Of a DNA stretch of 64,000 nucleotides, positions 26,661-52,386 are shown piece after piece (positions within the stretch are counted from its first letter, which is position 1; the number at the start of each line of letters is the position of its first letter). The DNA comes from a bacterium (lineage in GTDB: Bacteria; Zhuqueibacterota; Zhuqueibacteria; Residuimicrobiales; Residuimicrobiaceae). The stretch spans positions 66,758 through 130,757 of the forward strand of contig DAOLSP010000006.1 in the NCBI GenBank assembly GCA_035419245.1, given 5' to 3'. Both the position numbers and the translations under genes were made by a program. The notes under the pieces were generated by a model. The model was not told the origin of the DNA. It ran no database searches and was given only the letters and a program-made list of their open reading frames with translations.

Positions 26661-27725
26661 ATGAAAAAAATAACCGCAATTCGCCTTTTCGGAAGTATCC
26701 TGGTCCTGCTCGCCTCGGTCGGTGGAAATGCCCAGGATAACCAGAAACTGGCGCAGACCAGTTTCAAATTCCTGAGTGTCGTCTCTGACGCCCAGGGCGC
26801 CGCCATGGCCGGCGCAATGACCAGCCTGCCGTTGGGCTCCAGCGCCCTCTTTTTCAATCCGGCAGGGATGGCGAATATGGAAAGGCGCGCCGACCTATCG
26901 CTCAGCAATAACGAGTGGATCGCTGATATCCGGCACTATACGGTGGGCCTGGCACTCAATCCGGCCAATGGCAAATACGGCGTGGTCGGACTGAGTCTGC
27001 AGTATGCCGATTTTGGGAGCTTCATTGGCACAGTGGTCAGCAAGGATCCTGCCAACCTCAAAGGCTACGAAGAGACCGGCCTTTTCGATCTCAATGCCTA
27101 TGCCGTGGGTCTCGGCTACGCCAGGGCGCTTACCGACCGCTTCAGCGTCGGTGGGCAAATCCGTATGGCCCATCAGGATCTCGGAGAGAGCCGGATTCCC
27201 AACGAATCCAAACACATCCCGATCTATGATGATTCGAATCACGCCATCATCGGCTATGAGGACTCGACGGCTACAGGCACCAACCGCCTCACGCCCCTGG
27301 TCTTCGACTTTGGCACCCAGTTCAAGACCGGCGTTAAGAGCCTCGTCTTCGGCATGTCGGTGCGTAACTTCTCCAAGGAAATTCAATATGTCTATGAGCA
27401 GTTCCAGCTGCCCCTGGTTTTCACCCTCGGGATCTCGATGAATCTGATGGATCTTTTTCATGAGGTCCCGTATAACCAGTCCCTGGTGATGAGCATCGAT
27501 GCAAGCCATTACCGGGACCATCCCGAGCAGCTCAAGGTCGGATTGGATTACCGGATCATGAACATGATCGCCCTGCGCGGCGGCTATGTCACCGCCAGCG
27601 ATGAGAACAGTGGCTTTTCGTTCGGACTCGGCGTCTATAAATCAGGCTTCGCCTTTGATTACGCCTATACCCCCTACGGGGTCTTCGATAACGTCCAGCG
27701 CATGACCGCCCGGATCTCACTGTAA
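26661..27725 (+). CDS. FadL-superfamily outer-membrane beta-barrel (PorV/PorQ/PorP-like)
   Basis: Signal peptide. N-terminal hatch-like motif …SDAQGAAMAGAMTSLPLGSSALFFNPAGMAN, matching the GxGxA…DDA…NPA pattern shared by FadL/PorV-type 14-strand barrels. 354 aa. Lies 14 nt downstream of a CTD-bearing gene. Confidence 0.65.
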   Translation: MKKITAIRLFGSILVLLASVGGNAQDNQKLAQTSFKFLSVVSDAQGAAMAGAMTSLPLGSSALFFNPAGMANMERRADLSLSNNEWIADIRHYTVGLALNPANGKYGVVGLSLQYADFGSFIGTVVSKDPANLKGYEETGLFDLNAYAVGLGYARALTDRFSVGGQIRMAHQDLGESRIPNESKHIPIYDDSNHAIIGYEDSTATGTNRLTPLVFDFGTQFKTGVKSLVFGMSVRNFSKEIQYVYEQFQLPLVFTLGISMNLMDLFHEVPYNQSLVMSIDASHYRDHPEQLKVGLDYRIMNMIALRGGYVTASDENSGFSFGLGVYKSGFAFDYAYTPYGVFDNVQRMTARISL

Positions 27726-27745
27726 TCAAGGCCAAGGAGAATACC

Positions 27746-29002
27746 ATGATGAAACCTTGCTGTATCTTAACCCTCGTCACGCTCCTGCTGGCGGCTGCCG
27801 GACTTTTGCTGACCGGTTGCGAATTTGATGTCGCCGAGCCCAAGTGGGAGGAGCCCGCGCCTGCTACCGCCGCCGTCTCGATTTCATCGATCGATCCGGC
27901 AGCCGCGGTTGCGGGCGTGAATTATATCACCATTCATGGCGCTAATTTCACCGGCGCGATTGATACCCTGATCGTCAAGAGCTCGGACAAGGATACCAGT
28001 TACCGCTATCTCTATAATGGCATCTACTTCGATGATGTCAAGGCGGATGTTGTCGAGTTCTCCGACACCGTCATTAAGGTGCGCCGACCCAAACTGGCCA
28101 ACGAGGCCTGTCAGGTCAAGGTGGTCTCCAATAAGGCGATGGCCACGGCCAAATATGCCCAGCCTTACAGGATCGACGCGGTCGTCGGCCGCTATGGCCT
28201 GTTCAACGAGGATCTGCCGCTGGCAGTGGTTGTCGTGGATGCCCGCGAGAATCTCTATGTAGTTGAGACCAACACCCGTTATATCCAAAAAATCACCCCT
28301 AGCGGCGACAAGACCAACATCGCCTCCGCCCTGCGCGTCCCCTACGACGCCAGCATCGGAGGGGACGGCAATCTCTATCTGGCCGGAAACAACAGGGCCA
28401 TCGACCGGGTTGACCTCTCCACTGGAACCATCGCTCGCTGGGTGAACCTCCCATCGGGAAAAGTGGTGAAATTCCTTGATTTCAGCGAAACCGGATACTG
28501 CTTTGCCGGCGGAACCCGTACCGATCTGGTCGTCATTCCCGGGGATCTGTCAACCACCGCGGTCTCAGCCGGTTTTTACGCCACGCAGGAGATCCTCGCC
28601 ATCCGCTGCTATAACGGCGCCGTATACGTCGCTGCCCGGGCCACAGCAGCCGATCCGGTCAAGATCTACCGGCATGCCATTGGCGACAAGGGCAGCGTCG
28701 GCGCCCAAGAGCTGGTCCTCGATCTCTCCAAAACCAGCATGTTCGCCGGCCGAAGCCTCAAGGCCATCAGTTTCGCCTCGGATGGTACCATGATAATCGC
28801 AACCGATGCAGCCGATCCCCTGCTCAGCTATACTCCCGCCACCGGCCAGATGGATTATTATTACAAGGGAATCCTCAATCCATATTGCAAGCACTTTTCC
28901 TGGGGCAGTAAGACTTATCTCTATATGATCTGCGGCGATGACACCGCCGGCGAAGAGTGGACGGTCTATCGCGTCGACATGGGGACGACAGCGGGCAACT
29001 GA
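27746..29002 (+). CDS. Lipoprotein with IPT/TIG-like domain and beta-propeller-like C-terminal region
   Basis: Lipobox LLTGC. Ig-like segment (SISSIDPAAAVAGVNYITIHGANFTG). Repetitive beta-rich C-terminal part (NLYVVE / NLYLAG repeats). Confidence 0.65.
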   Translation: MMKPCCILTLVTLLLAAAGLLLTGCEFDVAEPKWEEPAPATAAVSISSIDPAAAVAGVNYITIHGANFTGAIDTLIVKSSDKDTSYRYLYNGIYFDDVKADVVEFSDTVIKVRRPKLANEACQVKVVSNKAMATAKYAQPYRIDAVVGRYGLFNEDLPLAVVVVDARENLYVVETNTRYIQKITPSGDKTNIASALRVPYDASIGGDGNLYLAGNNRAIDRVDLSTGTIARWVNLPSGKVVKFLDFSETGYCFAGGTRTDLVVIPGDLSTTAVSAGFYATQEILAIRCYNGAVYVAARATAADPVKIYRHAIGDKGSVGAQELVLDLSKTSMFAGRSLKAISFASDGTMIIATDAADPLLSYTPATGQMDYYYKGILNPYCKHFSWGSKTYLYMICGDDTAGEEWTVYRVDMGTTAGN

Positions 29003-51199: not shown

Positions 51200-51306
51200 G
51201 ATCCGACCCGGAAAATGAATAACCTAGGTACTGCGCGGGGGACAATATGCGAAGGGCAAAAGCTTTCGCAAGCTTTTGCCCTTTTTCAGAACGGTCAAAT
51301 GGTCAA

Positions 51307-52386
51307 TTAAAAGCCGATGCTCAAGGAGAAGCGCATGGTGTTGGCGAGGGGATGGCCCTCATCGGCGGAGACATAGCTGAAATCGAAACGGTAGAGATTG
51401 TAGGCAATGCCGGCGCCGAGGCTGAAATAGTCGACCTTGCCGTCCTGGTCCCAGTAATACCCGGCGCGCAAGGCGAAGAGGTCGTTATACCAATATTCGG
51501 CGCCACCGCTGACGATCCCCTTGAACACGTTGTCATATTTTACGTTGCTGGTGTCATTGGATGCGCCGGTCCGCTTCTTTTCCACCCAGGGCGAGGTAAA
51601 AATCGCCTTGTAGAAGGGATCGGAGGTGCCATCGGCATAGCGTTTGACCATCGTCTTGTTCAGATCAGCGACGAAGGTCAGCTTGTTGTATTTATTGTTG
51701 ATGGCATGCGCGGCGAAGCCGACCCGGAGGTTGGTGGGCAGGGGGTCAGCTTGAGAGGCGTCGATATAGGTGATTTTGGGGCCCATATTGGAGAGGTTGG
51801 CTCCGACACTGAAAGCGTTGGAAACCTTGTAGAGGGTTGCGAGGTCGAAGCCGAAGGCGCTGGCGCGGCCATCGCCTTGTTCCGATCCGGCGCCGAATGG
51901 CGAGAGGTTGGACTGGATGAAGCGTGCGCCCAGGCCGACGGCCCACTTTTCGCTCAATTGGGTGCCATAGGTCAGCGAGATGGCATATTCGTTACTGGAA
52001 AATTCGCCGATGGGATCGGGGCCCGATTCATCCGTGCGCGACTGGGTGCCCAGATTGAGGTAGGTGACGTTGATGCCCACGGTGCCGATGTTCTCGAAAT
52101 GCATGCGGTAGGCGCCGAACTCGTAAAAAAGGTCGGTGCCAAGCTGCGGCAGCCAGTTGGTATGCATCAGGGTGAGCTCCCGGCCCCGCTGGAATCCCAG
52201 GCCGGCCGGATTGTAATAGACGGCAGTGGCGTCATCAGCCAGACCGACGAAGGCTTCGCCCATGCCCGCGGCGCGGGCACCGGGTGAGATCTGGAGAAAG
52301 AGCACGGCGGATTCACTTACGGCAAGGGCCGAAGCGAAGGAGCCGAGGATGACGACCGCAATGAGGCATCTAAACAGGTTTTTCAT
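51307..52386 (-). CDS. FadL-superfamily outer-membrane beta-barrel (PorV/PorQ-like), first gene of the operon
   Basis: GGGAGGAAG RBS 4 nt before ATG (MKNLFRCLIAVVILGSFASALA signal peptide). N-terminal LFLQISPGARAAGMGEAFVGLADDATAVYYNPAGLG hatch motif. Ends in an aromatic (…LSIGF). A 479-bp AT-rich region lies upstream. Confidence 0.75.
   Translation of the reverse strand: MKNLFRCLIAVVILGSFASALAVSESAVLFLQISPGARAAGMGEAFVGLADDATAVYYNPAGLGFQRGRELTLMHTNWLPQLGTDLFYEFGAYRMHFENIGTVGINVTYLNLGTQSRTDESGPDPIGEFSSNEYAISLTYGTQLSEKWAVGLGARFIQSNLSPFGAGSEQGDGRASAFGFDLATLYKVSNAFSVGANLSNMGPKITYIDASQADPLPTNLRVGFAAHAINNKYNKLTFVADLNKTMVKRYADGTSDPFYKAIFTSPWVEKKRTGASNDTSNVKYDNVFKGIVSGGAEYWYNDLFALRAGYYWDQDGKVDYFSLGAGIAYNLYRFDFSYVSADEGHPLANTMRFSLSIGF

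Follow-up and report, generated by a model that had tools for sequence, protein, structure and literature searches.

PorV/PorQ-family barrels in a Zhuqueibacterota genome and a conserved TonB-receptor cassette pairing one of them with a type-A-like T9SS C-terminal domain protein

T9SS (type IX secretion system) models, which come from Bacteroidia and Flavobacteriia, assign a single PorV to cargo proteins with a type-A C-terminal domain (CTD) and several PorP/SprF paralogues to type-B cargo. Here we analyze a window of 64,000 nucleotides from contig DAOLSP010000006.1 of a Zhuqueibacterota genome, which encodes three outer-membrane barrels of the PorV superfamily (B1, B2, and B3); B1 occupies third place in a cassette around a TonB-dependent receptor and follows the gene of a secreted protein, p770, whose CTD resembles type A. 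The principle that a PorV-like barrel may have a particular CTD protein as its cognate partner is already known from PorQ/PorZ and from PorP/SprF with type-B cargo. In the attachment complex of Porphyromonas gingivalis, PorZ and PorU are T9SS-exported, and their uncleaved type-A CTDs hold them on the barrels PorQ and PorV, respectively (PMC10202324). In Flavobacterium johnsoniae, PorP/SprF-like barrels are needed for the secretion or localization of the CTD protein linked to them (PMC12618676, PMC9143113). A FadL-fold barrel can also act as a static docking platform and not as a channel, as described for BamG of the Bacteroidota BAM complex (PMC12578637).

The pair formed by B1 and p770 shares features with several of these systems and differs from each. 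As in PorQ-PorZ and PorV-PorU, a predicted 14-stranded barrel of the PorV/PorQ family is paired with one specific, putatively surface-located protein, but B1 falls far below the equivalog cut-offs of both PorQ and PorV, and p770 has neither a propeller nor a peptidase domain, possessing instead a supersandwich of the kind found in carbohydrate enzymes. Further, the B1-p770 pair belongs to a TonB-receptor cassette that occurs in many copies per genome, and its proposed role is nutrient capture, not cargo attachment. Like the PorP/SprF shuttles of Flavobacterium johnsoniae, B1 is one of several barrel paralogues per genome, each genetically linked to its own putative CTD surface protein; unlike them, the window barrels do not match the PorP/SprF models, the CTD of p770 is type-A-like and not type B, the carriers are non-Bacteroidia members of the FCB (Fibrobacterota, Chlorobiota, and Bacteroidota) group, and B1 is partnered by a subunit conserved within the cassette and not by an adhesin. 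The cassette resembles the SusC/SusD polysaccharide utilization loci (PULs) in combining a TonB-dependent receptor that has a carboxypeptidase-regulatory-like N-terminal domain with a probably surface-exposed lipoprotein, a putative glycan binder, and neighboring secreted glycosidases, and in its many copies. It differs in lacking a SusD homologue, in a receptor that scores well under the SusC/RagA cut-off, and in that its putative glycan binder is a T9SS-type CTD protein with a PorV-like barrel and not a lipoprotein.

We searched the literature on PorV-like proteins and on Ignavibacteria, KSB1, and Calditrichota and found no description of such a cassette, although absence from that literature is no proof of novelty; in the Melioribacter genome paper, nothing beyond a classical SusCDE operon is mentioned. 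A PorV/PorQ-family barrel outside PorP/SprF, present once per TonB-receptor cassette and constantly paired with a protein that joins a supersandwich to a type-A-like CTD, in several non-Bacteroidia FCB phyla, is apparently new. Overall, the explanation that we favor, and consider reasonably probable, is that B3 is the general PorV, B2 a stand-alone paralogue, and B1 the barrel that docks p770 within an uptake cassette.

A four-gene cassette around a TonB-dependent receptor

The cassette was surveyed in one genome per GTDB species, which gave 193 relatives, and 76 loci (numbered with the prefix L, as are the other loci named below) were examined with their 20-kb flanks by tblastn with the window proteins; these loci contain 82 B1-type genes. 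The carriers are Ignavibacteriota, KSB1/Zhuqueibacterota, Calditrichota, and Neomarinimicrobiota, and the Ignavibacteriota among them include the cultured Rosettibacter primus 4148-Me (L061; NZ_JAYKGK010000005.1, ~196 to 217 kb) and Melioribacter metagenome-assembled genomes (MAGs). B1 itself has 2765 homologues at an E value of 1e-5 or lower, many of them at about 60% identity or above. The gene order is shared: TonB-dependent receptor, p770, B1, and a lipoprotein with a TIG domain (Table 1). A p770 homologue ends no more than 400 nucleotides upstream of the B1-type gene in 76 of 78 cases, a receptor homologue lies upstream of p770 in all 57 loci with enough flank, and a TIG homologue starts within 500 nucleotides downstream of the B1-type gene in 74 of 75. 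This four-gene cassette is widespread and apparently undescribed.

Several genomes carry more than one copy. Tandem cassettes were found at seven loci (L019 [OY969585.1], L021, L031, L033, L050, L054, and L084), and dispersed copies occur in MFD03726.bin.1.201 and MFD01476.bin.1.150, each of which contributed three loci. At L021, the two B1 copies (each 63% identical to the window protein) and the two TIG copies (each 42%) score identical bits against the window proteins, and this pair of cassettes points to what may be a recent duplication. The cassettes often stand beside CTD-bearing glycosidases: in 42 of the 76 loci, other genes with a type-A CTD are located no more than 10 kb away, and the glycosidase candidate adjoining the cassette in the window has a full-length homologue in the flanks of 16. 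Scans for sigma-70 promoters and intrinsic terminators in both barrel clusters of the window stayed at chance level.

Gene pairing of this kind bears on the proposal of the sequence-only reading that this lineage uses multiple PorV-like shuttles, each dedicated to a neighboring cargo protein. For B1 the proposal survives in part, given that p770 is directly upstream in nearly every case and that several such pairs exist per genome; for B2 and B3 it is not supported, as set out below. That several PorV-like barrels are dedicated to a type-A-like CTD protein throughout the lineage is well supported by synteny. The partner of B1 is a conserved structural part of a TonB-receptor cassette, not an arbitrary cargo protein such as the adjoining glycosidase, which its canonical type-A CTD predicts to be ordinary T9SS cargo.

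Mostly beta in structure and without a lipobox, p770 consists of a galactose-mutarotase-like beta-supersandwich (residues ~45 to 445), a helical linker, an Fn3-like domain (~515 to 625), and the CTD (~630 to 770). The Fn3-like domain and a C-terminal beta-sandwich are visible in its AlphaFold model, which has a mean predicted local distance difference test score (pLDDT) of 85.3. No Pfam domain is assigned to the protein, and its approximately 390 homologues are annotated as "hypothetical." The last ~140 residues align with the three type-A CTDs of the window that score above the cut-offs of PF18962 and TIGR04183 (those of the M6-like protein, the glycosidase candidate, and the further CTD protein in Table 1), sharing the motifs PNP, I-x-D-x-x-G, SG-I/V-Y, and K-x-x-I-I-K/R, and contain two insertions relative to them. 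Some p770 homologues are matched by CTD models directly, P0281 and P0295 by PF18962 and P0253 by PF13585. The C-terminal region of p770 is probably a modified type-A-like T9SS CTD, and it is unusually conserved.

At least five p770 homologues of ~797 to 818 amino acids (P0246, P0257, P0262, P0299, and P0307) have an inserted CBM_5_12 domain, which binds chitin or cellulose, and an 868-amino-acid p770-type gene (L006, 1..510) has the insertion too. The presence of this domain in some homologues supports a carbohydrate-binding role, and there are hints in these sequences that different cassettes may be specialized for different polysaccharides.

Conservation is distributed unevenly over the cassette. 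Within the p770 family, mean identity to the window protein is 71% for the CTD core and 78% for its last strand, compared with 60% for the supersandwich; in the cargo glycosidase the order is reversed, with 51% for the CTD and 57% for the catalytic part. Mean p-distances across 49 complete cassettes are 0.33 for the p770 CTD, 0.37 for B1, 0.39 for the p770 Fn3-like domain, 0.46 for the receptor barrel, 0.51 for the p770 N-terminal domain, and 0.62 for the TIG protein, the least conserved module. A docking pair that stays constant while the parts facing the substrate vary would give such a pattern. With barrel and CTD conserved above all other modules, a constant device for docking seems a better reading than a shuttle that discriminates among cargo proteins. 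In mirror-tree comparisons, B1 co-varies with every cassette module (Spearman coefficients of 0.58 to 0.86).

The receptor has the CarboxypepD_reg N-terminal domain, the plug, and the beta-barrel of a TonB-dependent protein, all above cut-off (PF13620, PF13715, PF07715, and PF00593), and no sequence relative in the PDB at an E value of 1e-3 or lower. None of the cassette proteins matches SusD/RagB. In Bacteroidota, acidic residues following the lipidated cysteine form part of surface-lipoprotein export signals, and a similar arrangement is seen in the TIG protein, which has the lipobox LLLTG|C and whose homologues (L009 to L084) keep C-[EK]-[YF]-D-V-A-E-P-x-W from the cysteine onward. By comparison with the criterion for such signals quoted in PMC12578637, this motif may serve as a signal for surface export in these lineages outside the Bacteroidia, and the TIG lipoprotein is probably exposed at the surface.

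Table 1 Features of the window discussed in the text
Feature	Coordinates	Strand	Description
Further type-A CTD protein	16967..18898	+	643 aa; PF18962 34 bits, above cut-off; no other domain; upstream of the cassette
TonB-dependent receptor-like protein	21030..24338	+	First cassette gene; probable true start M38 at 21141
p770	24335..26647	+	Secreted; second cassette gene; signal peptide; translation probably starts at M14 (24374)
B1	26661..27725	+	354 aa; PorV/PorQ-family outer-membrane barrel; third cassette gene
TIG/IPT-domain lipoprotein	27746..29002	+	Fourth cassette gene; PF01833 above cut-off
Clan-GH-A-like glycosidase candidate	29059..31017	+	Secreted; canonical type-A CTD (PF18962 30.4 bits, TIGR04183 27.1 bits, above cut-off)
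GH2 and GH31 (glycoside hydrolase families) gene pair	31027..36392	-	GH2 beta-galactosidase GalB-like (958 bits); GH31 alpha-xylosidase/alpha-glucosidase-like with PA14 insert; converging on the cassette
Efflux operon	36574..42180	+	TetR regulator, TolC-like OEP, HlyD-type adaptor, two ABC-2 permeases; between the barrel clusters, unrelated
DUF5683-type paralogues	42933..43775 and 42238..42939	-	280 and 233 aa; end of the porV operon; PF18935 31.1 bits for the first
p1017	43772..46825	-	1017 aa; Peptidase_MA-like N-terminal domain with HEFSH, TolB/Tricorn-like beta-propeller; third core operon gene; no CTD
B2	46832..48085	-	417 aa; divergent PorV-like 14-stranded barrel between the M6-like gene and p1017
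M6-like metalloprotease homologue	48125..51199	-	FG-GAP/beta-propeller region; type-A CTD (PF18962, TIGR04183 above cut-off)
B3	51307..52386	-	359 aa; probable PorV orthologue; first gene of the porV operon

Family membership of the three barrels

The sequence-only reading had singled out three open reading frames as FadL/PorV-like barrels within 26 kb. All three were found, each encoding a signal peptide and then an N-terminal segment that runs up to NPA(G/A), and family scores and PDB matches confirmed them as barrels of the PorV superfamily. The motif strings quoted for them are correct as sequences, but the first gene was given the string of the third and vice versa: AQGAAMAGAMTSLPLGSSALFFNPAGMAN belongs to B1 and ARAAGMGEAFVGLADDATAVYYNPAGLG to B3. 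NCBI labels B1 and B3 as "PorV/PorQ family protein" and both B2 and p770 as "hypothetical protein" (anaerobic-digester MAG); the contig carries the NCBI proteins HOT97782.1 and HOT97797.1.

The barrels were assigned to classes by curated hidden Markov model (HMM) scores together with PDB matches. The cut-offs are 90 bits for NF033709 (PorV/PorQ), 250 bits for NF033710 (PorV equivalog), and 220 bits for NF033711 (PorQ equivalog) in NCBIfam, and 27 bits for PF19572 (PorV) and 29.7 bits (gathering) for PF03349 (Toluene_X) in Pfam. B3 is well above the NF033709 cut-off (298.9 bits) and that of PF19572 (105.1 bits), is slightly under that of the PorV equivalog (231.1 bits), and matches the solved PorV of F. 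johnsoniae (6h3i_F) at an E value of 9.6e-36 in phmmer. B1 is also above the NF033709 cut-off (171.5 bits), the model matches 12 of 12 members of the B1 family, and the profile of that family matches 6h3i_F at 2.2e-5; on the PorV equivalog it reaches 59.8 bits, and its best equivalog model is PorQ, at 79.8 bits far under the cut-off. B2 stays below all of these (40.1 bits on NF033709 and 22.3 bits on the PorV equivalog), and none of the three reaches the PorQ equivalog cut-off (99.6 bits for B3 and 15.7 bits for B2). The PorP/SprF models (PF11751 and TIGR03519) match none of the window's three barrels at an E value of 1 or lower, and in the B1 family they give weak matches for just 3 of 12 members (best E value, 1.9e-6).

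The fold of B2 was examined by structure prediction. In its AlphaFold model (pLDDT, 85.7; predicted template modeling score, 0.83), 14 long strands form the barrel and residues 27 to 70 form a helical plug at the N terminus. The top Foldseek matches of this model among solved structures are two chains of F. johnsoniae PorV, 8gl6_F (E value, 2.7e-14; an entry that shows PorV together with the RemA CTD) and 6h3i_F, with TbuX and FadL behind. B1 and B3 are predicted, from family membership, to be FadL-fold barrels of 14 strands as well. Sequence identity is 29% between B2 and B3 (E value, 2e-25) and 21% between B1 and B3 (4e-11); BLAST detects no similarity between B1 and B2, whose family profiles align at 89% probability. 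The three barrels are true members of the PorV superfamily, probably with three different roles.

Proposed docking of p770 on B1 and competing explanations

We propose that p770 would cross the inner membrane via Sec and the outer membrane via the T9SS, by means of its type-A-like CTD. The CTD would then stay uncleaved on the extracellular face of B1, just as PorQ keeps hold of PorZ and PorV of PorU, and the supersandwich would thereby be held at the cell surface beside the receptor. There, p770 and the surface TIG lipoprotein might capture oligosaccharides from secreted glycosidases and pass them to the receptor for TonB-powered import, the direction of transport being assumed. The docking steps are proposed because of the analogy with PorZ-PorQ and PorU-PorV; we infer the T9SS export of p770, the retention of its CTD, the docking of B1 with the CTD, the binding of glycans, and the direction of transport. 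The cassette would then be a SusD-less, T9SS-dependent glycan-capture module, a counterpart of the PULs in function. Its widest form, a phylum-spanning machine for glycan uptake in which the role of SusD or of surface glycan-binding proteins is taken by a T9SS-exported protein whose uncleaved, specialized type-A CTD sits permanently on its own PorV-like barrel, is put forward tentatively.

Use of the T9SS by the organism is supported indirectly. The further type-A CTD protein upstream of the cassette is evidence for it, and PorV itself, the four CTD genes, and a PorU-like gene beside PorV in a relative (L093) would be in keeping with a complete T9SS.

Should the proposal be correct, the idea that a cognate barrel holds a retained CTD would extend from the attachment complex to nutrient acquisition, and PorV-family barrels would be general surface-anchoring sockets, one per uptake system, beyond the single-copy secretion shuttle. 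It would also explain how polysaccharide degraders largely without SusD loci (Ignavibacteriota, KSB1, Calditrichota, and Marinimicrobia of sediments, soils, and digesters) capture glycans. The cassette provides an annotation handle for the roughly 400 "hypothetical" p770-type proteins and for the several hundred unannotated clusters of B2-type barrels, and its presence in the cultured Rosettibacter primus makes the idea testable.

Several observations weigh against this proposal. The CTD of the window's p770 is below the Pfam and NCBIfam CTD cut-offs (CHU_C, 17.7 bits with a cut-off of 27; the PorZ model matches the C terminus at an E value of 1.2e-4). Carbohydrate binding by p770 is predicted from fold similarity at 5 to 10% identity. 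The receptor scores 68.7 bits on the SusC/RagA model TIGR04056, in its N-terminal region only, where the cut-off is 368. Not all TonB-dependent proteins of the CarboxypepD_reg type are importers: Oar of Myxococcus carries an N-terminal domain of this type. Oar is required for the secretion of the protease PopC (PMC6434023). The 64-kb window, which is the part of the genome examined, encodes none of SprA/Sov, PorK/L/M/N, and PorU. Finally, partial correlations that control for the TonB-dependent receptor do not single out the CTD as the partner of B1 (0.33 for B1 and the CTD; 0.40 for B1 and the TIG protein).

The alternative that survives best, although we regard it as unlikely, is that B1 is a transient shuttle dedicated to p770, taking the protein from the SprA translocon, delivering it, and separating from it, so that no permanent anchor would exist. 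B1 belongs to the PorV/PorQ family, in which PorV itself is a shuttle (PMC5562754, PMC12618676), and the strict pairing of p770 and B1 genes is equally compatible with such a role. On the other hand, a stable stoichiometric pair is suggested by the presence of a single barrel gene in each copy of the cassette and by the very high conservation of barrel and CTD, and the known cognate pairs (PorQ-PorZ, and PorP with type-B proteins) are anchors with retained CTDs (PMC10202324). Sequence analysis cannot separate the anchor from the transient shuttle.

It is still less likely, in our estimate, that B1 serves, in analogy with BamG, as a platform for the TIG lipoprotein or as an assembly helper of the receptor complex, leaving the p770 CTD to the general PorV. 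FadL-fold barrels can dock surface lipoproteins, as BamG does (PMC12578637), the TIG gene follows B1 almost without exception, and the partial correlation of B1 with the TIG protein is at least as high as that with the CTD. Against this stand the strong scores of B1 on PorV/PorQ models as opposed to Toluene_X (14.5 bits), the unusual conservation and the insertions of the p770 CTD, which call for a specific partner, and the position of the TIG protein as the least conserved cassette module.

The porV operon and the divergent barrel B2

B3 appears from its family scores and gene neighborhood to be the PorV orthologue and the general PorV of the organism. It opens an operon whose order (porV, the M6-like CTD protein, p1017, and two DUF5683 proteins) is conserved well beyond the lineage, with copies in L088 (PorV 92% identical), L091 and L092 (89%), L094, and L089 (52%). 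At L093 (5160..12895), a PorU-like protein of 1247 amino acids with a Peptidase_C25 domain precedes PorV, the M6-like gene, and p1017, and different genes follow downstream. The sortase PorU has a domain of this C25 family.

The sequence-only reading had each barrel immediately adjacent to a gene ending in a CTD, which is true in a loose sense. B2 and B3 share one such neighbor, the M6-like gene, the other neighbor of B2 (p1017) being without a CTD, and the neighbor of B1 is p770, whose CTD the HMMs missed, the canonical type-A CTD gene of the glycosidase candidate lying two genes away. A PorV gene that adjoins a CTD gene is an ordinary finding. The idea of a dedicated shuttle is not supported for B3, by its scores an ordinary PorV whose CTD neighbor recurs beside it in the operons of many lineages, nor for B2, whose neighborhoods show no recurrent CTD gene and which is missing from the same operon in close relatives.

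The M6-like gene follows PorV in L088, L089, L091, L092, L093, and L094. Its product scores 502 bits on NF052323, the model of T9SS-dependent M6-like inactivated metalloproteases (cut-off, 600), and has no HExxH in its sequence. Its position after the PorU-like C25 protein and PorV in L093 suggests that it belongs to the attachment machinery and is not ordinary cargo. We also considered it as a replacement of PorU and rejected this, as L093 has the C25 PorU-like gene besides.

B2 is PorV-like by fold, to judge from its predicted structure, and lies outside the boundary of the curated NF033709 family, although 26 of 27 members of its subfamily match that model at an E value of 1e-3 or lower (best, 2e-21). 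The subfamily comprises at least 606 representative clusters at an E value of 1e-30 or lower, mostly full-length proteins of ~400 to 440 amino acids. Its position between the M6-like gene and p1017 is found in the window and in L088 only, where the B2 copy is 58% identical while PorV is 92% identical, and B2 is absent from the porV operons of L089, L091, L092, L093, and L094. Distant B2 homologues (L008, L085, and L087) are found in unrelated contexts, without common neighbors and without an adjacent CTD gene. On this evidence, B2 is a true PorV-like paralogue that evolves fast and stands alone, and its presence in the operon is an insertion specific to this lineage. A conserved partnership of B2 with p1017 or with the M6-like protein was rejected because B2 is missing from most porV operons.

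A more specific version of such a partnership, in which the M6-like CTD protein pairs with B2 as PorZ does with PorQ in an attachment complex, making B2 the functional PorQ, seems very unlikely to us. The M6-like protein is conserved in the porV operon, where it comes after the PorU-like C25 protein and PorV in L093, combines a beta-propeller region with a CTD as PorZ does, and has a C terminus with a weak match to the PorZ model (E value, 0.003), and in the window B2 is encoded directly after it. The absence of B2 from the operon in most lineages and its unrelated contexts elsewhere argue otherwise, as do its PorQ equivalog score of 15.7 bits, when 220 is required, and the restriction of the PorZ similarity of the M6-like protein to the CTD. 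Resemblance of B2 to BamG is slight: B2 is directly upstream of p1017, which has a weak Omp85-type match in its C-terminal part, but this adjacency is not conserved, and the best structural matches of B2 are PorV, with one chain of the BamADG entry 9hiv ranking 45th.

We give the least credence to a role of the barrels as FadL-type channels that would carry hydrophobic or amphipathic substrates, have no mechanistic tie to the T9SS, and neighbor CTD genes only by coincidence. In favor of this view are the shared FadL fold and N-terminal NPA segment, the weak Toluene_X matches of B3 (24.5 bits) and B1, and a B2 without conserved neighbors. It is already disfavored for B1 and B3. All Toluene_X scores are under the cut-off (B2 has no match) and those on PorV-family models far higher, and by these scores the barrels do not group with FadL/TodX. 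PorV is the best structural match of B2, ahead of TbuX and FadL, and coincidence cannot account for p770 adjoining B1 across phyla in 76 of 78 cases.

In all of the porV operons that were examined, p1017 is found downstream of the M6-like gene, and it may be an unrecognized T9SS-associated component of the outer membrane. The weak Omp85 match covers its C-terminal ~350 residues (E value, 0.0019), and a PDB sequence search returned TolB-like propellers only. At L003 (9332..12303), a JGI contig, p1017 is present as two open reading frames of 896 and 106 amino acids that are 100% identical to the window protein; the split probably reflects a frameshift introduced in assembly. The two DUF5683-type proteins have an N-terminal signal-like segment and are conserved in L088, L089, L091, and L092. 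In L088, the same pair of GH2 and GH31 genes that converges on the cassette in the window stands beside the porV operon, and the two clusters have thus been rearranged relative to each other.

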